Source of the DNA: an uncultured Gammaproteobacteria bacterium
Lineage (GTDB): Bacteria; Patescibacteriota; Patescibacteriia; UBA11705
Length of the DNA stretch: 64,000 nt
Direction of reading: 5' to 3'
Assembly: GCA_964413735.1 (NCBI GenBank)
Contig: CAYPSS010000003.1
Coordinates: forward strand, 106,626 to 170,625
The position numbers were made by a program, and so were the translations under genes. The stretch's first letter is position 1. Every line of letters begins with the position of its first letter. Of this stretch, positions 3,725-36,434 are shown in pieces. A model generated the notes under the pieces. That model was not told the DNA's origin and did no database searches. It saw only the letters and a list, made by a program, of their open reading frames with translations.

Positions 3725-6115
3725 TCAAGATTTAATTTTGTTTTTTGATCTTTTATTAAGTTCAATGATTAAATTTTCCACTTCTCGATCGATTATTTGC
3801 CGAACTGTTCGGGCGCCTTGGCCAATTTTTTGCGATTCTTGTGCCAAGCGGGATAAGTTTTTACTGAGTTTGGTTATGTTTATCAAAGATTTTTTTTCTT
3901 CCAGTTGTTTTAAGTGTTTTTTGAATATTTTTTGTAGTGTAATTGCCTCTAAGTTTTCAAATACAATAATTTTATCAAGGCGATTGATAAATTCGGGGCG
4001 AAAATGTTTTTTTGCTTCCTCAACAATTTTTTCGATTAAGGCTGAATTTGTTTGTTGGTTACCAAAGCCCCAAGAAATATTTTTGTTGAATAAATCGGCG
4101 CCTAAATTGGCGGTCATAATAATAATCGTGTTTCTGAAATTAATTTTTTTGCCGGTGGCATCGGTTAAATAGCCGTCTTCTAAAATTTGCAATAATAAGT
4201 TTAAAACTTCCGGATGTGCTTTGTCGATTTCATCAAATAAAATTAAACTGTAAGGACGTTTTTTAATGGCGTCGGTCAGTTTGTTTTCTTCGCGATATCC
4301 CACATAACCGGCCGGTGCCCCAATCAGCTTTGAAGCGTTGAATTTTTCACTGAATTCCGCCATGTCAATTCGGATGAATGATTCTTGATCGCGAAATAAT
4401 TTTTCCGCTAAAATTTTTGCGGTATAAGTTTTGCCCACTCCGCTTGGTCCTAAAAATAGAAACGAGGCTTGCGGTCGATTTTCATCTTGCAGTCCGAGTT
4501 TTGATTTTTTTAATGAATTGATAATTGTGGTTAGGGCTTTATCTTGACCGAAAATTTCATTTTGTAATTTAATTTTAATTTTATCCAAGGTTTGCCAATC
4601 GTTTCCCAGTAATTCACTGATCGGAATTTGGGTTTTGGCTGAAATGATTTCCTGTATGGTTTGGGCGTCGACGATTGGTGGATTTTTTGTTAATTGAAGA
4701 TCGCGAGTTTTTTGTAATTTTGTTAACCGTTTTTTAAGAATGATTTGCTCGGCTTTTATTTTAATGGCTAGGTTGAAGTTTTCATTTAGAACAGCTTTTT
4801 CTTTCTCTGTATTCAGCTTGTTGATTTCCAATTCCAAATTATTGATATTAGTAAATAACTTATTATTATTCATCTGTATTTTTTGTTTGGCGGCGGCTTC
4901 GTCAAGCAGGTCGATGGCCTTGTCCGGAAACAATTTATCTTGTATATAGCGTTTACTTAAATTTAAGGCCGTAATAATGGCCGCGTCGTCAAATTTTACC
5001 TGGTGGTAATTTTCATAATTGCTCTTTACCCCAAATAAAATTTCTTTTGTTTCGGTGATTGTTGGTTCGGTTAAAATTATGGGTTGGAACCGTCGTTCCA
5101 GCGCCGCATCTTTTTCAATGAATTTTTTATATTCTTCCATGGTGGTGGCGCCAATACAACGCAGTTGACCACGCGCTAAGAGTGGTTTGAGCAAATTTGC
5201 CGCGTCCAAACTGCCATTACTGGAACCGGCACCGACAATATTATGTAATTCATCAATGAATAAAATTGTCTGCGGGTCATTTTTGATTTCATCAATAATT
5301 TCTTTGAGACGATTTTCAAAATCACCGCGATACATGGTTCCAGCTACCAAAGAGCCGAGGTCCAGAGAAATGATTTTTTTATTTTTCAAAATATTCGGGA
5401 CTTCGCCGTTTACGATTTTCTTGGCTAATCCTTCCACTAATGCGGTTTTCCCTACTCCCGGATCACCTAAAATCAAGGGATTATTTTTGTCTTTACGACA
5501 TAAAATTTGAATTAAACGATCAAGCTCCTGGTCGCGTTTAATAATCGGGTTGATTGATTTTTGATATTCAATATCCGTTAAATCAACGGAAAAATATTTT
5601 AATGTCCCTGAACCGGGTTTGTTCGTAAAAGGGTCTTGACCCTGTAAAATTAAATTTTCCGGGTTATTGATTTGGGTTAAATGCGTATCGCCTTTTAATA
5701 AATTATCTAAGTCATTTTTTAATTTTTCAAGATTGATTTTATAATTTTGTAAAATATATTTTATCAAATATGGCGGGTCGTCGAGTAATACGGCCAAACA
5801 ATGTTCCGTACCGACAAAAGTGTGTTTTTGACTAAACGCCAAATTAAAAGCACTGATCAGCAAGTCTTCGATGGTTTTGATTCGTGATTTCGATTCTATT
5901 GATGGTAGATTAAGAGAAAGCAAATCAGCTAATTTTTTTTCATCATTATTTTTGTCTTGAAGAAAAAATTTATTGGCCAAAGTGTTCGGTTCATGAAATA
6001 AGGCAATAATAAAATCATTCAATTCGATGACGGAACGATTTTTTTTAAGGGCGAACTTTTTCGCTTGTTCCAAACAGTGGCGCAAATTGTCGGATAGTTT
6101 TTCTAAAAAATCCAT
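3725..6115 (-). CDS. clpC: Clp-family double AAA+ ATPase/chaperone (ClpC/ClpB type) with Clp N-domain
   Basis: Two Walker A motifs (GDPGVGKT and GPSGVGKT). Clp_N-like N-terminus. Short coiled-coil middle domain between the AAA modules, closer in length to ClpC than ClpB. 796 aa. Confidence 0.85.
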   Translation of the reverse strand: MDFLEKLSDNLRHCLEQAKKFALKKNRSVIELNDFIIALFHEPNTLANKFFLQDKNNDEKKLADLLSLNLPSIESKSRIKTIEDLLISAFNLAFSQKHTFVGTEHCLAVLLDDPPYLIKYILQNYKINLEKLKNDLDNLLKGDTHLTQINNPENLILQGQDPFTNKPGSGTLKYFSVDLTDIEYQKSINPIIKRDQELDRLIQILCRKDKNNPLILGDPGVGKTALVEGLAKKIVNGEVPNILKNKKIISLDLGSLVAGTMYRGDFENRLKEIIDEIKNDPQTILFIDELHNIVGAGSSNGSLDAANLLKPLLARGQLRCIGATTMEEYKKFIEKDAALERRFQPIILTEPTITETKEILFGVKSNYENYHQVKFDDAAIITALNLSKRYIQDKLFPDKAIDLLDEAAAKQKIQMNNNKLFTNINNLELEINKLNTEKEKAVLNENFNLAIKIKAEQIILKKRLTKLQKTRDLQLTKNPPIVDAQTIQEIISAKTQIPISELLGNDWQTLDKIKIKLQNEIFGQDKALTTIINSLKKSKLGLQDENRPQASFLFLGPSGVGKTYTAKILAEKLFRDQESFIRIDMAEFSEKFNASKLIGAPAGYVGYREENKLTDAIKKRPYSLILFDEIDKAHPEVLNLLLQILEDGYLTDATGKKINFRNTIIIMTANLGADLFNKNISWGFGNQQTNSALIEKIVEEAKKHFRPEFINRLDKIIVFENLEAITLQKIFKKHLKQLEEKKSLINITKLSKNLSRLAQESQKIGQGARTVRQIIDREVENLIIELNKRSKNKIKS

Positions 6116-6120
6116 AAATA

Positions 6121-6999
6121 TTAGGCGGTCATTTGGCGTAATTTGTTAATTCGTTCATTAAGCGGAGGATGAGTGTCAAATAAGTTGGTTAAAGACTTTT
6201 TCCCGGCAAACGGACTGGCGATAAATAAATGTGCGGTAGCGGTATTGGCTCTTTGCATGGGGGCATGATACTGGGAAATTTTTTCCAGTGCATCGGCCAA
6301 AGCTTGCGGATAACGCGTGAGAAGTGCGCCATCAGCATCAGCCAAGTATTCGCGTTTACGAGAAATAGCCAGTTGGATGATTTTGGCGATAAGCGGTGAT
6401 AAAATCATGAGTACCAAACCAACAATCAAAATAATTCCATTGCCATTTTTGTTGTCGCTTTTTCGTCCAAAAAAAGTACTTCGAACAAAAATGTCACTTA
6501 ATAACGCCACAATTCCCACCAACACAATCACCACCATCATTAATCTGATATCATAGTTTTTAATGTGTGATAATTCATGAGCAATGACTCCTTCCAGTTC
6601 GGTGCGATTAAGCTTTTCCAATAAACCGGTAGTTAGCGCAATGGAAGCATGTTGTGGATCACGACCGGTGGCAAAAGCATTGGGAGCCGAGTCATTGATC
6701 AAATATATTTTTGGCATGGGTAATCCGGCGGTAATACAAAGATTTTCCACTAAGCGATAAATTTCCACATTTTCATCTCTTTTAATTTCCTTTGCTCCGG
6801 TGGTGGAAAGTGCCACTTTGTCACCTTGATAATAACTTACTAAGGCCATAATCAATGAGATAATGGTGGCAATGATTAGCGCCGAATATCCAAGTTCACT
6901 GTAAAGACTGAAAAAATATCCCAGCAATATGATAAAAGCACAAAATATAGTGATGAGGATAACGGTTCTTTTTTTGTTGGAATCAATTTGATTGTACAT
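6121..6999 (-). CDS. htpX: Zinc metalloprotease HtpX (peptidase M48)
   Basis: N-terminal TM helices, HELSHI (HExxH) motif, typical HtpX length. Adjacent to lemA, as is common. Confidence 0.85.
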   Translation of the reverse strand: MYNQIDSNKKRTVILITIFCAFIILLGYFFSLYSELGYSALIIATIISLIMALVSYYQGDKVALSTTGAKEIKRDENVEIYRLVENLCITAGLPMPKIYLINDSAPNAFATGRDPQHASIALTTGLLEKLNRTELEGVIAHELSHIKNYDIRLMMVVIVLVGIVALLSDIFVRSTFFGRKSDNKNGNGIILIVGLVLMILSPLIAKIIQLAISRKREYLADADGALLTRYPQALADALEKISQYHAPMQRANTATAHLFIASPFAGKKSLTNLFDTHPPLNERINKLRQMTA

Positions 7000-7053
7000 A
7001 ATAATATTTTTAGGACTGCAAATCCGGAAAGGATTTGCAGAGAAAAAATACTA

Positions 7054-7611
7054 TTAGAATTGAACATTAATATTTTGTTTTTCGTCTTGAGAAGCTTCGA
7101 AAAATTCATATTTCTTAAAGCCCAAGAAATTGGCGACCAAGTTGTTGGGGAAAATTTGAATTTTGGTATTAAAGTCACGAACATTGCCATTATAAAAACG
7201 ACGAGAAGCTTGGATTTTATTTTCCGTATCGGAAAGTTCGCCTTGTAATTGCAAGAAGTTTTGGTTAGCTTTGAGTTCCGGATAATTTTCCGCCAAAGCG
7301 AAAATTGATTTCAAGGTATTGCTCAAAGCGTTTTCCGCTTCGCCTTTGGCTTCAACTCCTTGAGTTTGCATGGCTTTGGTGCGTGCCTCGGTCACTTTTT
7401 CAAATGTTTCTTTTTCGTGTGAAGCATATCCTTTGACCGTGTTGACTAAATTGGGGATCAAGTCATAGCGTCGTTTGAGCTGAACATCAATATCGCTCCA
7501 TGCTTCATCGGTTCGATTTTTGAATTTGATCAAGCCGTTGTAAACGCCGATTAACCACAAAACGACGATTACCAATACGGCTAGAACAATGTAAAAAACA
7601 GTTGTTCCCAT
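7054..7611 (-). CDS. lemA: LemA family membrane protein
   Basis: N-terminal TM anchor followed by the conserved LemA core (YNGLIKFKNRTDEAWSDIDVQLKRRYDLIPNLV). Confidence 0.85.
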   Translation of the reverse strand: MGTTVFYIVLAVLVIVVLWLIGVYNGLIKFKNRTDEAWSDIDVQLKRRYDLIPNLVNTVKGYASHEKETFEKVTEARTKAMQTQGVEAKGEAENALSNTLKSIFALAENYPELKANQNFLQLQGELSDTENKIQASRRFYNGNVRDFNTKIQIFPNNLVANFLGFKKYEFFEASQDEKQNINVQF

Positions 7612-7766
7612 AAATTAAACTTATCTGCCCGCTTCAATCACTTTGAGGAGTGATTTTTTTGGTCAGATTATTATTTTTTATTTGAAACTCTTACTCATTT
7701 ATTGTATAGTATTGTAGTGATTTAGTAAAGTGAATAAATGGGTATTTTTATAAATAAATTAGCTTT

Positions 7767-8894
7767 ATGAAAACAAAAATTTTGCTTTTTTTCTTGTTTT
7801 TATGTGGTGGTATTTTCTGGGGGGCGGTGGTTGATGCCAAGTCCTCGATGGAAGATAATTACTTTGTGGCCAGTGAAAGAGTCATTGAAGAAAATTTTTT
7901 TAAAGCCGGTAATGCGATTGATATTGCCGGAACATTAAAAAAAGATGCTTATGTGATTGGTAATATTGTGACGGTTGATGGCGTTATTGAGGGTGATTTG
8001 ATTGGTGCGGGAAGTACTTTGAAAATCAATGGTGAGGTAAAGGGTAGTGTGCGTTTTATTGCGGAAAATATAATTATCAATGGTCAAGTGGGAAAAAATT
8101 TATTAGCGGCCGGGAATTTAATTAATTTGGAAAATAATGGTTCGGTTGGTTGGGAAGTTTTAAGCGCTGGTAATTTAATTGATATGAAAGGTAAGGTAGG
8201 GTCTGACTTAAAAGCAATTGGTACTATTTTAAATATTAATAATGAAATCAATGGCCGAGTTCACGCCCAAATGACGGAAATAAATTTGGGTGATCAAGCG
8301 CTGATTACAGGTGATTTTAATTATTATTCGGAAAAAGATTTAGTAAAAAAAGAACAAGCCCAAATTTTGGGTCAAATTAACAAGATTGAAAATTTTGGGT
8401 TTACCAAGTCTCAACCCGCCAAGGATTTCTCTTATTATTTGGGGAAGTTTATTTTTAGCTATTTGAGCTTTTTGCTTTTAGCGATTGTTTTGATCGTTTT
8501 GATGCGCAAAAAAATTGATTTGGTGACCATGGAAATCAAAAGTAATTTGGCAAAAAATTTAGGTTGGGGAATTTTGCTCTTGTTTGGCGTACCTTTATTG
8601 GCGGTGCTTATTTTATTAACAATTGTGGGATTGCCGATATCTTTGGTGGTGATGATGATTTATTTTGCAGTGGTTTTGGTTTCACGAATTTTTGTGTCAA
8701 TTGTGATATGGCGTTTTATTGCTCAATTGGTGAGAATCAAACAACCGCTTGATTTAATGCTTCAAGCCTTGATTGGTTTGTTTGTTTATTCTCTGTTGTG
8801 TGTAATACCGATTGTGGGGGCTTTGTTGAATTTGTTGGCAATTGCGGTTAGTTTAAGTGCGGTTTTCCTAGTTTTTCGTCAAAGTGAAAAGTAA
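7767..8894 (+). CDS. Signal-peptide protein with bactofilin-like beta-helix repeats and C-terminal polytopic membrane domain (hypothetical)
   Basis: Signal peptide. Repeated G-x-I/V-x-I/V-x-G segments (GNIVTVDGVIEGDLIGAGSTLKINGEVKGSV...). Three or four C-terminal TM helices. Confidence 0.5.
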   Translation: MKTKILLFFLFLCGGIFWGAVVDAKSSMEDNYFVASERVIEENFFKAGNAIDIAGTLKKDAYVIGNIVTVDGVIEGDLIGAGSTLKINGEVKGSVRFIAENIIINGQVGKNLLAAGNLINLENNGSVGWEVLSAGNLIDMKGKVGSDLKAIGTILNINNEINGRVHAQMTEINLGDQALITGDFNYYSEKDLVKKEQAQILGQINKIENFGFTKSQPAKDFSYYLGKFIFSYLSFLLLAIVLIVLMRKKIDLVTMEIKSNLAKNLGWGILLLFGVPLLAVLILLTIVGLPISLVVMMIYFAVVLVSRIFVSIVIWRFIAQLVRIKQPLDLMLQALIGLFVYSLLCVIPIVGALLNLLAIAVSLSAVFLVFRQSEK

Positions 8895-9031: not shown

Positions 9032-10408
9032 ATGATAGAAATTAATGATAATATTTTCAAAGCTTATGATATTCGCGGGGTGTATGGTCGTGATTTTGAT
9101 GAACAATTAGCTTACCGATTGGGCCGGGCGTTTGCTGAACTGCTTAAAAGCGAAACCGGTCGAGAAACCGTTAATTTGGGTGTGTCGCAGGATATGCGCT
9201 TATCTTCCCCGATACTTTATGAAAATTTAATCAAGGGAATTTTAGAGCAAGGGGTTAATGTTATGGAGTTTGGTTTGGTTGCTACGCCGACCTTTTATTT
9301 CGGAGTGGCCAAAAATCGTTTGGATGGTGGTATTCAGGTTTCCGCTTCTCATAATCCGCCGGAATATAATGGTTTTAAATTAGTCAGAGATAGTGCCATG
9401 GCGGTAAGCAGTGAGACGGGTATTATGACTTTGAAACAAGCGGTAAAACAAAATGAATTTCCCTCTGTTTCAGTTAAGGGTCACCTGATAGGTAAAGTGG
9501 AAAATTTATTGGATGAACAAGTGGTGTTTGCCATAAGACAAGGTGATGTTACCAAGATAAAGCCTTTTAAAATTGTTGTTGATAGCGCCAATGCGGTTGG
9601 TGGTCCGATGATTAAGGCTTTATTTGATCGTTTGCCGGTAAAAGTGGAATATTTGAATTTTGAACTTGATGGTTCTTTCCCGGCGCATGAGGCTGATCCT
9701 TTGAAAGACAAAAACAACCAACAATTACAAAATAAAGTATTGGAAAGTGGCGCGGATTTGGGAGTGGCGCTTGACGGAGATGGCGATCGAATATTTTTTA
9801 TTGATAACCAAGGAAAAACAGTTGAACCGGCGATTGTGCGAGGAATTCTGGCAAAAATATTTTTACAGGAAAATCCGGGGGCCACAATTTGTTATGATAT
9901 TCGTCCGGGAAAAATTACCGAGGATATGATTGTGGAAAATGGTGGTAAGCCGGTAGTCACGCGAGTGGGACATTCGTTAATCAAAGAAAAGGCGCGTAAA
10001 GTGAATGCGATTTTTGCCGGTGAAAGTAGTGGTCATTATTTTGTTAAATTACCATTTGGTTTTTTCGAAGAACCATTGATCGTGGTATCGAAATTTTTGA
10101 TTGAATTAAGTATTGCCGAATTATCTTTGTCAGAGTATATTAAACCATTGCAACGTTATTTTCATTCCGGTGAAATTAATTTTGGGGTTAATGATAAACA
10201 AGCGGTGTTCAATGCTATAAAAGAAAAATACGGTGACCATTTGCAATATGATTTTGATGGTTTGAGTTTTGTTTGGGAGGATTGGTGGTTTAATGTTCGT
10301 GCTTCCAACACGGAAAATGTGGTACGATTAAATTTGGAAAGTGTGGCACAGTCTTTAACTCAAGAAAAGGTGGCTGAAATTACGGAATTGATCAAACAAT
10401 TTGATTAG
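9032..10408 (+). CDS. glmM: Alpha-D-phosphohexomutase (phosphoglucosamine mutase / phosphomannomutase family)
   Basis: Active-site Ser loop SASHNPPEYNGFK, Mg-binding DGDGDR, sugar-binding GESSGH. 458 aa. Confidence 0.8.
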   Translation: MIEINDNIFKAYDIRGVYGRDFDEQLAYRLGRAFAELLKSETGRETVNLGVSQDMRLSSPILYENLIKGILEQGVNVMEFGLVATPTFYFGVAKNRLDGGIQVSASHNPPEYNGFKLVRDSAMAVSSETGIMTLKQAVKQNEFPSVSVKGHLIGKVENLLDEQVVFAIRQGDVTKIKPFKIVVDSANAVGGPMIKALFDRLPVKVEYLNFELDGSFPAHEADPLKDKNNQQLQNKVLESGADLGVALDGDGDRIFFIDNQGKTVEPAIVRGILAKIFLQENPGATICYDIRPGKITEDMIVENGGKPVVTRVGHSLIKEKARKVNAIFAGESSGHYFVKLPFGFFEEPLIVVSKFLIELSIAELSLSEYIKPLQRYFHSGEINFGVNDKQAVFNAIKEKYGDHLQYDFDGLSFVWEDWWFNVRASNTENVVRLNLESVAQSLTQEKVAEITELIKQFD

Positions 10409-10418
10409 CAATTTTGGC

Positions 10419-10447
10419 TTGACTTTTTTTGGTTTTAGTGGTACAAT
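10419..10447 (+). promoter_or_regulatory. Sigma70-like promoter (TTGACT-17-TGgTACAAT) for micro-ORF
   Basis: ttgact at 10419-10424, 17-nt spacer, extended -10 tggtacaat. GGAGGTG SD then ATG at 10475. Confidence 0.45.
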
Positions 10448-10474
10448 GTTGATGCACTTTGGAGGTGTTTTCCC

Positions 10475-10573
10475 ATGGATTGGCTCTTGCGACGCGAAAA
10501 TTGGAAATGGGGTGCTTTGATTCTGGTGGTCATTCATTTGCTGGTGTTTCTGGGAGTCGGTTTCTCGGTTTAA
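10475..10573 (+). CDS. 32-aa single-TM micro-protein (MDWLLRRENWKWGALILVVIHLLVFLGVGFSV)
   Basis: Own promoter, SD GGAGGTG 7 nt upstream, hydrophobic helix, immediately followed by a terminator. Below the 60-aa ORF-track threshold. Confidence 0.4.
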   Translation: MDWLLRRENWKWGALILVVIHLLVFLGVGFSV

Positions 10574-10583
10574 TTGTTTTGAT

Positions 10584-10607
10584 AAATCTCGTAAAACGAG
10601 ATTTTTT
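10584..10607 (+). terminator. Rho-independent terminator
   Basis: aaatctcg-taaaa-cgagattt stem-loop followed by tttttt. Confidence 0.6.
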
Positions 10608-10639
10608 CGTTAAATTAGATAAATTATATTGAGATAAAC

Positions 10640-10667
10640 TTGACAAATTTAGTGGATTTGCTATAAT
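10640..10667 (+). promoter_or_regulatory. Sigma70-like promoter (TTGACA-16-TGcTATAAT) for GC-rich ORF
   Basis: Consensus -35 and extended -10. Only about 8 nt of leader before ATG 10682, with no SD. Confidence 0.45.
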
Positions 10668-10681
10668 GCGTTTGCTGCAAA

Positions 10682-10990
10682 ATGGCAGTCGTTCTTCTCT
10701 TTCAGGAGGTTTCTGTGGAAGGCGTGGCCAGTGTTCCGGTTGTTCAGGGTGAGGTTCCGGCGCCGACCGAGGCTCCTCTGCCGCAGTTGTCGGTGGATCA
10801 GGAGATTCAGATTCGGAATGTCCTACGCGACATCCTCGAGCGCTGCGAGCGCCCGAGCGACGTCAAGCGTGCGGTCATCCGGCGGCTCGGCGGGAAGTAC
10901 ACTTTCCCGGCGCCGACGGTGATCTGCCGTAAGTCACAGCGACTGGTGGCGATCAAGATCGGCGACCAGGAGATCAGCGTCGAATTGTAA
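10682..10990 (+). CDS. GC-rich 102-aa hypothetical protein with foreign-like codon usage (possible DEK-C-like helical domain)
   Basis: Very GC-rich compared with flanks. Strong GC3 periodicity (GAC ATC CTC GAG CGC TGC GAG CGC CCG AGC GAC GTC AAG). The other two frames give Arg-rich junk. Motif EIQIRNVLRDILE...SDVKRAVIRRLGGKY. Flanked by promoter and terminator. Confidence 0.5.
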   Translation: MAVVLLFQEVSVEGVASVPVVQGEVPAPTEAPLPQLSVDQEIQIRNVLRDILERCERPSDVKRAVIRRLGGKYTFPAPTVICRKSQRLVAIKIGDQEISVEL

Positions 10991-10997
10991 TCTTGAT

Positions 10998-11022
10998 AGC
11001 AGATCAAATGATCTGCTTTTTT
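10998..11022 (+). terminator. Rho-independent terminator
   Basis: agcagatca-aa-tgatctgct perfect stem followed by tttttt. Confidence 0.65.
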
Positions 11023-11057
11023 GTTTGATTGATGTTTTTCACGTTTTATTTTTTAAT

Positions 11058-11370
11058 ACTTGTCCCACTTGTTTTGCTTATTACTTTCTTGCTTACAGCT
11101 TTCTTTATTCTACAGCTCAGACTCTGAAACAAGTTCAGAGTGAGAATATGGTTTTTATTTTTATTCCCTCATTTCCTAATTCTTAATCCCTTTTAATACT
11201 CGTTTCACTCGTATTACTTGTCCCACTTGTTTTGCTTATTACTTTCTTGCTTGCCGCTTTCTTGATTCAACAGCTCAGACTCTGAAACAAGTTCAGAGTG
11301 AGAAGATAACTTGTTTTACTTGTCTTGCTTATCACTTTCTTGCTTACTACTTACTTGTTGTCTGCTTCGA
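11058..11370 (+). repeat. Direct repeat array: two approximately 88-bp copies (11058-11145, 11216-11303; about 84/88 identical) plus a degenerate third copy, each containing a hairpin
   Basis: The copies begin acttgtcccacttgttttgcttattactttcttgctt and end cagctcagactctgaaacaagttcagagtgaga. Inner inverted repeat actctgaa/ttcagagt with loop acaag. Period about 158 bp. No ORF. Confidence 0.7.
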
Positions 11371-11483
11371 CTTGCTTCGCCCGCATAGCGAGGCGAGCGC
11401 TGCTCAGCATGACAACATGATTGACGAATTGTTTTTTTTATGATAATTATTGGTTGGGAATTCTTCAAAAAAGGAGAGCGAAA

Positions 11484-11966
11484 ATGCGAGAAAATTTGAC
11501 TTTGATTATTGTAATTGTCGCAATTATTACCGCTTTCTTAACGCTGGCAGTACAGATTTTTTACGCGTGGTTACAACGAAAAGGTTTTTTACAAAAAGTT
11601 CGTTCGTTTGTTTATCAATCAAGTAATTCTTTTGCAGTTACATTGCCGGATATTTCTTGGTTGCAAATAACTTTGCGTTGGTATTTTGATGCGAAGTTTG
11701 TTTTAACGGAAACGGAAAGGGGACATTATAATAATTTGTTTTATCGGGCGATTGAAAAAGTTATTGTGCAAAATGAATGTTCAACAGATTTTTATCAATC
11801 AGAAGAATTTGTACTTTTATTGGTTAAGGCTTTGCAGGAATTGATAATTGATTCAACGAAAAAAAAATCTGTCTTTCAATTGGAAGTTACTTTGGAAAAA
11901 AACTGTCCAAGAATCCAGAGTGTAAGTTTGCGTCGAGTACTGTCCCCGGAAGATTTTGTGAATTGA
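11484..11966 (+). CDS. Hypothetical membrane-anchored protein
   Basis: SD aaggagag 6 nt before ATG 11484. N-terminal TM (LTLIIVIVAIITAFLTLAVQIFYAWL). No family recognised. Confidence 0.5.
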   Translation: MRENLTLIIVIVAIITAFLTLAVQIFYAWLQRKGFLQKVRSFVYQSSNSFAVTLPDISWLQITLRWYFDAKFVLTETERGHYNNLFYRAIEKVIVQNECSTDFYQSEEFVLLLVKALQELIIDSTKKKSVFQLEVTLEKNCPRIQSVSLRRVLSPEDFVN

Positions 11967-12035: not shown

Positions 12036-12836
12036 ATGATTGGAGTTTTTGATTCGGGATTGGGCGGTTTAACAATTCTCAAAGAATTAAGAAAAACTTT
12101 GCCTCAATACGATTATTTATATTTAGGTGATACTTTGCATTTGCCTTATGGCAATCGTAGTCAGGAAGCGATTTATCAGTTGACGGTCAAGGCCTGTGAT
12201 TTTTTGTTTGCGCAAGGGGTGAAGTTAATTATTATTGCTTGTAACACGGCCAGTGCCAAAGCCTTGCCACGCTTGCAACAAGAATATTTATTGCAACGAA
12301 AAAGCAAAACAGAAAACATCTTGGGCGTGGTTCGACCGGTCGCCGAATATTTTGCTCAGCATTATCAAAGGATTGGGGTAATTGGAACGCGCGGGACAAT
12401 AGATTCTTTGGTTTATGAAAAGGAAATCAAACAATTGAATAAAAAAGCAAAAATTTATCAAGTGGCTACTCCTCTTTTGGTGCCGTTAATTGAAGAGGGT
12501 TGGGGGAATAGTCCGGAAATGGAAGGTGTTTTACGAAAGTATTTAAAAGTGTTAAAATCTAAAAAATTGGAAGGTTTAATTTTGGGTTGCACCCATTATC
12601 CTTTGGTTATTAGGCAAATCCAAAAACAACTCGGACAAAATTGTGTGATTCCGCATCCGGGTAAAATCGTGTCTTGGAAATTACAGGAATATTTAAAGCG
12701 TCATCTTGAATTGGAAAAAACCATTTCACGACAAGGGAAATGTCAGTATTGTGTGACTGATCTAACGGATAATTTTCGTGAAATTGCACAAAAATTTTTG
12801 AAAAATAAAATAATAATTAATCAAGTGGAATATTAA
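12036..12836 (+). CDS. murI: Glutamate racemase
   Basis: DSGLGG N-terminus, catalytic-Cys motifs ACNTAS and GCTHYP. Confidence 0.85.
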   Translation: MIGVFDSGLGGLTILKELRKTLPQYDYLYLGDTLHLPYGNRSQEAIYQLTVKACDFLFAQGVKLIIIACNTASAKALPRLQQEYLLQRKSKTENILGVVRPVAEYFAQHYQRIGVIGTRGTIDSLVYEKEIKQLNKKAKIYQVATPLLVPLIEEGWGNSPEMEGVLRKYLKVLKSKKLEGLILGCTHYPLVIRQIQKQLGQNCVIPHPGKIVSWKLQEYLKRHLELEKTISRQGKCQYCVTDLTDNFREIAQKFLKNKIIINQVEY

Positions 12837-18985: not shown

Positions 18986-24790
<5,805 letters not shown>

Positions 24791-33394: not shown

Positions 33395-33412
33395 AAAAAT
33401 ATAAAGAATAAT

Positions 33413-34387
33413 ATGCCCGAACTATTTTCCCAAAAATTAAGAGCCAATTTCACCCCTGAACAGCAGGATTATTATTTGCTATTGGTAAATGAATTAAAAG
33501 AACTTTTGAATGGTCAAACGCAAGAGGAAGTACTTGCCAGTGGCGATCCGGAAATTATCCAACAAATTTTGAAGATCAAGCAAGAAATGCTTAATTTTGT
33601 GTTAACCAAGAAAACTAGGGAAATGACTAGGCAAGAGGAGAAAGCAAAATTAGAGCAAGAAAAACGATCAATTAGTTTAGATGAAATTGAAAGAAAACAA
33701 AAGGCGGGTGAAGAATTAACTGATAATGAATTGAAGTTTTTGTATCGGATTGATGGACTTGGTTTGTCTTTTTCATCTAGTAATGAAGATAAAAAACGAG
33801 TAGAAGATATTATAAATCAACGAAATATTAAGGAAGATGTTTCTTATGTTTTAGGTTGTTCAGAAGATCAAGTGAGTTTAACAACACAAGAGTTTTTAGC
33901 TGGGACAGACATTGTTTATCATTTTGGATTTCTTGATTTAGAAAGGATAACAAGCACTAAAGGATTACAATTACCGCAAAGTATTGGTGGAGGTCTTAAT
34001 TTAAGCCGTCTAACGAGCGCTGAAGGTTTACAATTACCGCAAAGTATTGGTGGAGGTCTTTATTTAGGCAGTTTAACGAGCGCTGAAGGATTACAATTAC
34101 CACAAAGTATTGATGGGGGTCTTTATTTAGGCAGTCTAACAAGCGCTGAAGGTTTACAATTACCGCAAAGTATTGGAGGAGATCTTGATTTAGAAAGGAT
34201 AACAAGCGCTAAAGGATTACAATTACCTCAAAGTATTGGAGGAAGTCTTTATTTAATGAATCTAAGGAGCGCTGAAGGATTAGAAATTCCCCTGGGTGTT
34301 AAATCGATTTATTTTGAAAAAATGTCAGATTATGAAATTGAAAAATTAAAGAAAAAATTTCCGCATATAAAGGTGAATAAAATATAA
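33413..34387 (+). CDS. Paralog 1 of a tandem family: conserved N-terminus, coiled coil, LRR-like 21-aa repeat core (5.5 tandem copies), conserved C-terminus
   Basis: MPELFSQKLRANFTPEQQDYYL...LTDNELKFLYRIDG, then repeats TSAEGLQLPQSIGGGLYLGSL, C-terminus KKFPHIKVNK. Confidence 0.6.
   Translation: MPELFSQKLRANFTPEQQDYYLLLVNELKELLNGQTQEEVLASGDPEIIQQILKIKQEMLNFVLTKKTREMTRQEEKAKLEQEKRSISLDEIERKQKAGEELTDNELKFLYRIDGLGLSFSSSNEDKKRVEDIINQRNIKEDVSYVLGCSEDQVSLTTQEFLAGTDIVYHFGFLDLERITSTKGLQLPQSIGGGLNLSRLTSAEGLQLPQSIGGGLYLGSLTSAEGLQLPQSIDGGLYLGSLTSAEGLQLPQSIGGDLDLERITSAKGLQLPQSIGGSLYLMNLRSAEGLEIPLGVKSIYFEKMSDYEIEKLKKKFPHIKVNKI
33928..34292 (+). repeat. In-frame 63-bp tandem repeat (about 5.5 copies) inside paralog 1
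   Basis: Near-identical units with single-nucleotide variants (e.g. aagcgctgaaggtttacaattaccgcaaagtattggaggagatcttgatttagaaaggataac). Confidence 0.8.
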
Positions 34388-34388
34388 T

Positions 34389-35336
34389 ATGCCCGAACTA
34401 TTTTCTCAAAAATTAAAAGCCAACTTCACCCCTGAACAGCAGGATTATTACTTGCAATTGGAAAATGAATTAAAAGAACTTTTAGGCGGTCAAACGCAGG
34501 AGGAAGTACTGGCTGGTGGTGATCCGGAAATTATCCAAAAAATTTTGGAGATAAAGCAGGAAATGCTTAATTTTGTGTTAACCAAGAAGACCAGGGAAAT
34601 GGTGAAACAAGAAGAAAAAGAACAAGAAGAAAGAATATTGAGACAAAGAGAAAAAGAATTAGAAAAAGAAAGACAAGCAGTAAGTTTAGATGAAATAGAA
34701 AGAAAGCAAAAGGCGGGAGTAAGATTGACTGATAATGAACTAAAGTTTTTATATCGGATTGATGGATTTGGATTATCTTCTATTTCTTCTGCTCATGAGC
34801 GTGCTTTGGCAACTCGAATAATTGAAAATAGAGATATAAAACAAGATATAATTCAAGTTTTAAATTGTAAAGATTATCAAGTTAGATCTTCGGTATTGAA
34901 TTATGCAAGAGATGAAGATATTGAATATTGTTTTGAAAGTTTGTATTTAGCGCATATAGGTTCCGGGCAAGGTTTGTATTTGCCAAAAAGAATCAAGGGA
35001 AATTTGGATTTAGGTGGGATTATAAATCCTCAAGGTTTAAAATTACCGGAAAGTGTTGGCGGTGTTCTTGACCTTAGGAAATTAAATACTGTTGAAAACT
35101 TAAAATTACCCAAGTATATTAACTATGATTTACTTTTGGATGGAATTATCACTACTAAAGGATTGAAATTACCCATTTTTATTGGAGGAAAATTGTATTT
35201 ACGACGATTAAGAAAGGTTGATGAATTGGAAATTCCATTAGGAGTAAAAACTGTCGTATTTTCGCTAGGTGTTTCTGACGCTCAAGTGGAAAAAATTTCT
35301 AAAAAGTTTCCTCATGTTACTTTTGAACGAGAGTAA
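34389..35336 (+). CDS. Paralog 2 of the tandem family (divergent repeat core)
   Basis: Same N-terminus (MPELFSQKLKANFTPEQQDYYLQLENELKELLGG...) and the same C-terminal KKFPH motif. Middle has degenerate about 21-aa LKLP-type repeats. Confidence 0.6.
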   Translation: MPELFSQKLKANFTPEQQDYYLQLENELKELLGGQTQEEVLAGGDPEIIQKILEIKQEMLNFVLTKKTREMVKQEEKEQEERILRQREKELEKERQAVSLDEIERKQKAGVRLTDNELKFLYRIDGFGLSSISSAHERALATRIIENRDIKQDIIQVLNCKDYQVRSSVLNYARDEDIEYCFESLYLAHIGSGQGLYLPKRIKGNLDLGGIINPQGLKLPESVGGVLDLRKLNTVENLKLPKYINYDLLLDGIITTKGLKLPIFIGGKLYLRRLRKVDELEIPLGVKTVVFSLGVSDAQVEKISKKFPHVTFERE

Positions 35337-35340
35337 TCTT

Positions 35341-36417
35341 ATGTTTGAAACACTTTCTCAAAAATTAAAAGCCAATTTCACTCCCGAACAGCAGGATTAT
35401 TACTTGCAATTGGAAAATGAATTAAAAGAACTTTTGGGCGGTCAAACGCAGGAGGAAGTACTTGCCAGTGGCGATCCGGAAATTATCCAACAAATTTTGA
35501 AGATCAAGCAAGAAATGCTTAATTTTGTGTTAACCAAGAAGACCAGGGAAATGGTGAAACAAGAAGAAAAAGAACAAGAAGAAAGAATATTGAGACAAAG
35601 AGAAAAAGAATTAGAAAAAGAAAGACAAGCAGTAAGTTTAGATGAAATAGAAAGAAAGCAAAAGGCGGGAGTAAGATTGACTGATAATGAACTAAAGTTT
35701 TTATATCGGATTGATGGATTTGGTTTGCCTTCTTTATCTAGTTATGAGAATAAAAAACGAGTAGAAAAGATTATAAATCAACGAAATGTTAAGGAAGATG
35801 TTTCTTATGTTTTAGGTTGTTTTGAAGATCAAGTAAGTTTAACGCAAGATCAGTTTTTAGACGGTGTAGATATCGAATATCATTATGGTAATTTAGATTT
35901 TCGAAATTTAAATATTTTATCTGATTGGCAATTACCCAAATATATTCATGGAACTCTTGATTTGGGTGGGTTAACTGAAGGATCAAATATAATTAATAGT
36001 CAATTACCTCAAGGCATAGGTTATACTTTGAATATGGAGAGATTGTGGTCAGCTGTTGATTTGGTTTTTCCTAAATATGTGGGCGATTTCAATATTATGA
36101 ACCTAACCAGAATTGAAAATGTTAAATTCCCTTATCGAGTTGCCGGTGATTTTCATGTTAGTTGTTTGTTAATGAAAAAAGGAGTTGAATTACCAAAGAT
36201 TATTTTAGGTAGCATTTATTTGTATGGTACAAGATTGCCGAGTGATTTTGAAATACCGAAAAATTTTGAGGGAAGATTGGTGTTTGATGCTTTGACCAGT
36301 TCAGAAGGTCTAGAAATACCATTCGGCGTTAAATCAGTTATTTTTTACATGATGCCAATTGATGAAATTGAAAAATTAAGAAAAAAATTCCCACATTCAA
36401 ATTTTGAAAAAAATTAA
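35341..36417 (+). CDS. Paralog 3 of the tandem family (mosaic of paralog 1- and 2-like segments)
   Basis: ATG at 35341. N-terminal about 400 nt nearly identical to paralog 2, with short blocks identical to paralog 1. C-terminal KKFPHSNFEKN. Confidence 0.6.
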   Translation: MFETLSQKLKANFTPEQQDYYLQLENELKELLGGQTQEEVLASGDPEIIQQILKIKQEMLNFVLTKKTREMVKQEEKEQEERILRQREKELEKERQAVSLDEIERKQKAGVRLTDNELKFLYRIDGFGLPSLSSYENKKRVEKIINQRNVKEDVSYVLGCFEDQVSLTQDQFLDGVDIEYHYGNLDFRNLNILSDWQLPKYIHGTLDLGGLTEGSNIINSQLPQGIGYTLNMERLWSAVDLVFPKYVGDFNIMNLTRIENVKFPYRVAGDFHVSCLLMKKGVELPKIILGSIYLYGTRLPSDFEIPKNFEGRLVFDALTSSEGLEIPFGVKSVIFYMMPIDEIEKLRKKFPHSNFEKN

Positions 36418-36434
36418 TTAGCTAATTATATTTT

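Follow-up and report, generated by a model that had tools for sequence, protein, structure and literature searches.

A strain-variable repeat array, possibly a local duplication, upstream of a promoter in an uncultured lineage of Patescibacteria

What are the long direct repeats, some of them ending in a hairpin, that lie between two small genes in this uncultured bacterium, and did they arise within the locus or come into it from elsewhere? The DNA analysed here (the window, the whole stretch of 64,000 nucleotides) has a G+C content of 36% and carries genes mostly on the + strand, with LigA, PcrA, GatA, DnaB, RecR, MurB, MurC and SHMT among the housekeeping genes recognised by Pfam scans. From the phosphomannomutase gene to the glutamate racemase gene the order is a 32-aa peptide ORF, a promoter, a GC-rich ORF, a terminator, the repeats, a promoter region and a 160-aa ORF (ORF160), and the immediate neighbours of the locus are housekeeping genes (Table 1). 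The array thus has a canonical terminator on one side and a promoter region on the other, with no + strand promoter-like site within it. When ~45 of the 64-kb window's ORFs, each 150 aa or longer, were scanned with Pfam, none matched an integrase, recombinase, transposase, reverse transcriptase or Cas protein. The existence of repeats with hairpins, as described in an earlier note made from the letters of the window, is confirmed.

Table 1. Features of the repeat-bearing interval and its flanks, in window positions unless a contig is named
Feature	Position	Strand	Description
Phosphomannomutase gene	9032-10408		Left flank of the interval with the repeats
Promoter of GC-rich gene	10640-10667		Perfect TTGACA-16-TATAAT
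GC-rich gene	10715-10990	+	91 aa, GTG start at 10715
Alleles/orthologs of GC-rich gene	L001 about 7687-7953; L010; sister species L007 682-945
Intrinsic terminator of the upstream GC-rich gene	10998-11017	+	Left edge of the repeat-bearing intergenic region
Repeat region	11054-11371		Between terminator of GC-rich gene and ORF160 promoter
Repeat unit 1	11054-11149	+	Two ACTTGTNNN 9-mers (11058-11075), GCTTATTACTTTCTTGCTTAC core, 17-nt linker, hairpin module
Hairpin 1	11116-11144	+	Stem ACTCTGAA (11121-28) / TTCAGAGT (11134-41), loop ACAAG
Inter-unit spacer	11150-11197	+	T-rich, C-rich (TTTTTATTTTTATTCCCTCATTTCCTAATTCTTAATCCC)
Repeat unit 2	11198-11307	+	Four tandem ACTYGTNNN 9-mers (11198-11233), core of unit 1, linker, hairpin module
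Hairpin 2	11274-11302	+	Sequence as hairpin 1
Unit 3	11306-11371	+	Pyrimidine-rich (73% C+T), no hairpin
Imperfect inverted repeat, 11-bp	11356-11417		TGTTGTCTGCT (11356-66) / AGCATGACAACA (11406-17); abuts TTGACG
GC-rich hairpin, 32-nt	11372-11403		Inside loop of the inverted repeat; one occurrence in window
ORF160 promoter region	11421-11468		+ strand site TTGACG...AATTAT or GATAAT
Weak minus-strand promoter-like site	11468 to 11440	-	TTGAAG-17-TATCAT; overlaps ORF160 promoter; shared with L008 and L002
ORF160	11484-11966	+	160-aa protein, N-terminal membrane anchor, no family match
Glutamate racemase gene	12036-12836		Right flank of the interval with the repeats

The closest named relatives of the window's phosphomannomutase belong to Candidatus Falkowbacteria, Magasanikbacteria and other Patescibacteria, and in the nearest GTDB species genomes this protein is 51% identical and the gene order is not shared. 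The neighbourhood of the phosphomannomutase gene differs among relatives: in one (L012, 65% identity) the interval from the phosphomannomutase gene to the glutamate racemase gene is filled differently, with a glycoside hydrolase and one further gene (5369-7340) standing where the window has small genes and repeats, and another (L011), whose phosphomannomutase is 82% identical, has an IS200-type Y1 transposase gene (209-640) just 5' of it. The free-standing 32-aa hydrophobic ORF of the window (MDWLLRRENWKWGALILVVIHLLVFLGVGFSV, 10475-10573, in a unit at 10419-10604) is served by a promoter (TTGACT-17-TACAAT) and a terminator of its own, and its ribosome-binding site is GGAGG; this membrane-peptide ORF is identical in the same-species contig L001 and absent from the sister-species contig L007. 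Two further regions of the window were noted. Internal repeats occupy 33400-36420, with 63-nt tandem units at 33868-34353 and ~300-nt repeats spaced ~950-1000 nt, and cover three adjacent ORFs of 315-382 aa that have no Pfam match and probably encode paralogous repeat proteins. A 1074-aa ORF directly 3' of the DNA ligase gene (21566-24790) has no Pfam match at E 1e-5 or better.

A repeat search returned two 96-nt copies, 11054-11149 and 11212-11307, with 94% identity and starts 158 nt apart, and a third partial copy at 11306-11357 that is 81% identical across 52 nt and belongs to the full unit 3. Two near-identical 88-bp copies had been reported in the earlier note, and over those 88-nt coordinates there are exactly four differences (11095, 11097, 11106 and 11111), all of them in the 17-nt linker that joins the tract to the hairpin; they are A>G, A>C, T>G and T>A, in non-coding sequence. 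The same note described three copies with a hairpin in each: the third copy exists and the hairpin is present in units 1 and 2, but unit 3 has none. The copies lie 158 and 93 nt apart and are not arranged head to tail, and the sole call made by Tandem Repeats Finder was a sub-repeat of 15 nt (11318-11357). Every unit opens with tandem ACTYGTNNN periods of 9 nt, two of them in units 1 and 3 and four in unit 2 (from 11198), and passes from these into GCTTATYACTTTCTTGCTTRC. The string ACTYGTNNNACTYGT has five mismatch-free occurrences, all within the array, against a chance expectation of 0.45 for the whole window, and ACTTGT, for which chance predicts 0.04 occurrences in the 361-nt array, is there seven times. 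The spacer between units 1 and 2 does not significantly resemble either the promoter region or what lies 5' of unit 1.

The repeats contain no ORF in any meaningful sense, as had been claimed, every frame having at least four stops over 11025-11420. Coding readings on both strands were ruled out by these stops, by missing starts and ribosome-binding sites and by composition. The judgement that the array is too long and irregular for CRISPR also held, the repeats being 96 nt long and spaced by 158 and 93 nt and cas genes being absent from the window; the one CRISPR-DR match in Rfam (E 6.1) was under threshold. The minus strand (GTTTCAGAGTCTGAGCTGTTGAAT) bears what we take to be a loose resemblance to type II CRISPR repeats, a likeness that was dropped for want of cas genes and array geometry. 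A diversity-generating retroelement was likewise rejected: the window has no reverse transcriptase, and the differences are not confined to template adenines and lie in non-coding sequence.

Exact-protein look-ups led to contigs from three other samples. Two samples represent the same species, with flanks 99.5% identical to the window (SRR19732722, contigs L001 and L009; SRR29243433, contigs L010 and L002), and the third a sister species (SRR31940688, contigs L007 and L008) whose flanking coding sequences are 73-79% identical. The end of L007 equals the start of L008 over 22 nt, so these contigs are probably adjacent. The same-species contigs hold the units and stop within or beside them, which is how k=31 assemblies should behave where sequence is repeated. 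The concern that the repeats are an assembly artefact can be set aside because the copies differ from one another and because independent short-k assemblies of two other samples also hold the units, ending inside them. Further copies of the unit elsewhere, which the earlier note had thought worth seeking, were found by neither nhmmer nor pattern searches in the 64 kb (the extent of this genome that was covered) or in 13 fetched loci. Besides the window, nhmmer matched the tract at the orthologous position in the sister species only, and BLAST of 11040-11420 against phages and plasmids gave only chance 35-nt matches, or none. In the DNA examined the repeats are thus restricted to one locus.

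The array varies between strains. L001 and L010 are short of one 15-nt sub-unit in unit 1, and from L002 exactly 93 nt are missing, the offset between units 2 and 3, which leaves a hybrid with the start of unit 2 and the end of unit 3. Both indels are in repeat register, between strains whose flanks are 99.5% identical. In the sister species (L008), which has the gene order of the window, there is a single tract of five 9-nt periods; it lacks the hairpin module and lies as far from TTGACG as unit 3 of the window does. Unit 3 and this tract (about 153-222 of L008) share 87.7% identity over 65 aligned columns. Tract and promoter are 87.7% identical between the species, compared with 73-79% for the coding flanks and 72-84% for three other intergenic regions, a margin that is modest (88% against up to 84%), comes from one sister species and may be inflated by the ease with which a low-complexity tract aligns. 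Because the sister tract is single, hairpin-less and conserved, unit 3 is best regarded as ancestral and units 1 and 2 as additions specific to the window's species. In the sister species a large, unrelated GC-rich palindrome in the style of REP/MITE elements (GTCATTGCGAGGAG...CGACGTGGCAATCT...AGATTGCCACG...CTCGCAATGA) lies 5' of the tract (L007 1081-1120, L008 1-112) and is absent from the window.

Unit 3 ends ~50 nt 5' of the TTGACG at 11421. The imperfect inverted repeat that follows is kept in all four orthologous sequences and has a fold z of -2.39, with no compensatory changes across the four. The GC-rich hairpin in its loop was seen in the window alone, being absent from L002, L009 and L008, and its pattern had no match in IMG/VR. 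The promoter block 11421-11468 is ~88% conserved with the sister species; its conserved pattern gave 0 matches in JGI metagenomes, a collection from which the lineage appears to be absent. ORF160 is lineage-specific, with 65% identity in the sister species and only two protein clusters found, and an exact-protein look-up of the window's own form returned no record. An A9 run in ORF160 (11859-11867) is A8 in L002, where the protein ends after 147 aa, a difference that may come from phase variation or from an error in sequencing. Around the ribosome-binding site and start codon the window (11470-11486, GGAGAGCGAAAATG) is unlike that region of all other strains and the sister species (GGATGGGTGATGGAG).

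In the window the 33-nt hairpin string CAGCTCAGACTCTGAAACAAGTTCAGAGTGAGA has exactly two occurrences (11113-11145 and 11271-11303), against none in 100 shuffles. The stem can indeed be extended across a 2-nt bulge as the earlier note proposed, CTC (11116-18) pairing with GAG (11142-44) with AG bulged, and in each hairpin amounts to 8+3 bp. The description of the hairpin as strong does not survive: its folding energy is -11.3 kcal/mol (z -1.76), a value that 10 of 200 shuffles also attain. Whole units do not fold better than shuffles (z +0.45 and +1.08), and the whole array gave z -1.38 and -0.46 on the two strands. Neither hairpin was called by terminator prediction. Being invariant in all copies and strains, the hairpin carries no covariation information. 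Units 1 and 2 agree completely (100% identity) in the hairpin and in the core of the tract, the confinement of differences to the linker having p ~0.025 (author's range calculation); this clustering could reflect selection on the hairpin itself or recent gene conversion. The hairpin pattern had 0 matches in GTDB (185,579 species genomes) and in IMG/VR.

The reading preferred here, which we give about an even chance of being right, is that the array is a local segmental duplication of a conserved, probably regulatory tract upstream of the ORF160 promoter. The ancestral state would have been one copy of a non-coding tract just 5' of that promoter, made up of 9-nt periods (ACTYGTNNN) and then GCTTATYACTTTCTTGCTTAC, and ending at the 11-bp inverted repeat beside the -35 box. 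The position, periodic motif and conservation of the tract suggest a regulatory role, in which unit 3 would act at the DNA level on the ORF160 promoter as a putative array of binding sites for some regulator; counting against such an array, the 9-nt period is unlike the helical repeat usual for response-regulator sites. In the window's species the tract would have been duplicated twice farther upstream, each copy becoming fused to a 29-nt hairpin module, after which unequal recombination or slippage among copies could have produced the strain differences in copy number and the small indels. The extra copies would require no function of their own and may be neutral; were they functional, they would most likely act in cis, as additional or decoy binding sites or by setting the spacing or insulation between terminator and promoter. 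Two further observations count against the duplication reading. It does not require differences to be limited to the linker, or selection on the hairpin, and by local alignment the hairpin module shows no significant similarity to ancestral sequence. The idea that hairpin and spacer are a decayed copy of the promoter region was tried and rejected, local alignment scores being not above those of shuffles.

The main rival, which we consider unlikely, is a purine-rich non-coding RNA transcribed from the minus-strand site at 11468 to 11440 through the inverted repeat, tracts and hairpins, and possibly extending antisense to the GC-rich gene. The window shares the promoter-like site with L002 and L008, and the tract is conserved across two species. 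On its + strand the array is rich in pyrimidines, C exceeding G and T exceeding A with a GC skew down to -0.48, whereas the surrounding + strand genes have G over C and positive skew, so that it is the minus strand that here has the composition of a sense strand. Against this, the site fits only 9 of 12 positions, with ~0.6-0.7 chance sites expected per region, and no minus-strand terminator-like site was seen. The minus-strand folds do not improve on those of shuffles (z -0.40, +0.04 and -0.46), and there are neither compensatory changes nor an Rfam match.

Small-RNA genes on the + strand are a quite unlikely reading. Here each unit would be a tandem small-RNA gene or structured RNA, giving a ~90-nt pyrimidine-rich RNA with UCCC-type motifs and a hairpin end. 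Tandemly duplicated small-RNA genes are known, as in PrrF1/PrrF2 of Pseudomonas aeruginosa and OmrA/OmrB of E. coli, and the array resembles them in having two near-identical, hairpin-ended units of ~90-100 nt in one intergenic region. Its core and hairpin are identical in units 1 and 2 with differences only in the linker, a U-rich run lies 3' of hairpin 1, and the UGUCCCAC and UUCCCUC motifs resemble what we take to be the anti-Shine-Dalgarno seeds of some Gram-positive small RNAs. The PrrF and Omr units, however, have their own promoters and a stem followed directly by a U-run, neither of which was found in the array. No + strand sigma-70-like site was found at 11025-11420, nor any promoter-like site on that strand ahead of either unit, and the TTTAAT 5' of each unit is without the essential A at position 2 of a -10 hexamer. 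The U-rich run comes only 8 nt past stem 1 and is absent after stem 2, and the tract of the sister species lacks the hairpin. Rfam gave nothing relevant, either at the gathering threshold (whole window) or at E up to 10 (10400-11500), and a tRNA/tmRNA scan gave no match. With no Rfam family, promoter, U-run right after the stem or fold-energy signal, the earlier suggestion of a small-RNA family found no support. A broader version, also quite improbable in our estimate, would see in the tract-plus-hairpin units functional modules specific to this lineage, working as RNA or by binding protein, for example a multi-copy pyrimidine-rich regulatory RNA from either strand.

Insertion of a mobile element is very unlikely. 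In this case the hairpin module would be a REP/MITE-like palindromic element inserted twice beside the tract. The region does take palindromic insertions, as the GC-rich hairpin of the window (11372-11403) and the large palindrome of the sister species attest, and the relative L011 has a Y1 transposase gene by its phosphomannomutase gene. The array hairpin, like REP/BIME elements and MITEs, is a short imperfect intergenic palindrome, and neighbouring strains carry palindromic insertions in the same region. Such families consist of many dispersed copies, whereas this hairpin is at a single locus in all DNA searched: it occurs only twice in 64 kb, both times within the array, and is absent from the 185,579 species genomes and from IMG/VR. 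The window has no transposase, and a reading of the sequence revealed no target-site duplication and no terminal inverted repeats. The REP/MITE identity put forward earlier found no support in the searches, which gave no extra copy in the 64 kb or the 13 loci and no match in GTDB, IMG/VR, phages or plasmids. Both hairpins are moreover in identical register within a 96-nt duplication, which argues for duplication rather than independent insertion.

Extremely unlikely are genes for hydrophobic small peptides in the style of type I toxins (Ibs/Sib, Ldr), in which one + frame would read LVPLVLLITFLLTAFFILQLRL with its stop within the hairpin. This frame is open in all three units with a hydrophobic product, and the 15-nt strain indel preserves it; all three + frames are open across the tract, however, because of its pyrimidine-rich composition. 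No Shine-Dalgarno sequence is present, against clear GGAGG-type sites at the neighbouring genes, unit 2 has neither ATG nor GTG, and all four inter-copy differences hit codons and alter the amino acid.

Hardly credible, and already contradicted by what was observed, is the proposal of the earlier note that the repeats are attC-like or other site-specific recombination sites at the edge of an inserted GC-rich cassette: the array does resemble an integron attC as an imperfect inverted repeat 3' of a small strain-variable gene, and it adjoins a GC-rich gene that differs sharply between strains, but the window has no integrase, cassette boundaries are lacking, the stem is short (8+3 bp), the GTTRRRY core is missing (the only GTT heptamer, GTTCAGA, has C for R), the gene is flanked by repeats on just one side, and the borders of allelic divergence fall inside the transcription unit, away from the repeats.

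The supposed cassette is itself a protein gene, with a sister-species ortholog at the same place that has the same promoter, 5'UTR hairpin and terminator, from which it follows that the GC-rich segment is no insertion. The hairpin and T-run of the terminator (AGCAGATCAAATGATCTGCTTTTTTGTT) are unchanged in the sister species. The gene has 63% G+C, and 77% at third codon positions, against 36% for the genome; the sister-species ortholog has 48%. Four alleles or orthologs (the window and three others) keep its frame open, with dN/dS of ~0.28, and gene callers miscalled the gene in two assemblies, choosing the wrong frame or strand. Between two strains with flanks 99.5% identical the alleles are only 66% identical in DNA (dN 0.32, dS 1.13), sharing the promoter, the first five codons, the last six codons and the terminator. 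A search of 1.84 billion representative proteins found one homolog of the product; there was no Pfam or PHROGs match above noise, an exact-protein look-up of the 102-aa form gave no record, and a protein-based search of JGI metagenomes gave 0 matches. The predicted structure (pLDDT 71) has two helices and then three strands, and a PDB fold search found nothing significant (best E 0.17). These data suggest that the polymorphism is old or that alleles were replaced repeatedly, under an unexplained pull to high G+C. This gene, hyper-divergent between strains, is a more curious feature than the repeats.

Contingency loci, in which variable-number repeats lie upstream of promoters, such as the TAAA tract upstream of nadA in Neisseria meningitidis, offer a further comparison for the duplicated tract. 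The array resembles them in being just 5' of the promoter of a surface or membrane protein gene, in differing in copy number between close strains via slippage or unequal recombination, and in having a downstream gene (ORF160) with an A9/A8 homopolymer difference. It differs in its long composite units (9-nt periods within 93-158-nt blocks) in place of short simple repeats, and its variation is known from three strains.

The feature is an ordinary one, a strain-variable intergenic duplication in uncultured Patescibacteria, and alone it is of small importance, being another intergenic region that grows by local duplication and varies between strains in a little-studied uncultured lineage. The repeats do break short-read assemblies at the locus. 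Were the tract-plus-hairpin units functional modules, their copy number would be tuned by strain, and together with the fast-diverging GC-rich gene and the variable gene for the membrane protein they would make up a single variable locus. With the cassette idea removed, the adjacent GC-rich gene becomes a resident gene with deeply diverged alleles and the better target for follow-up. The conserved tract 5' of ORF160 is a candidate regulatory element in a group with almost no known regulation.
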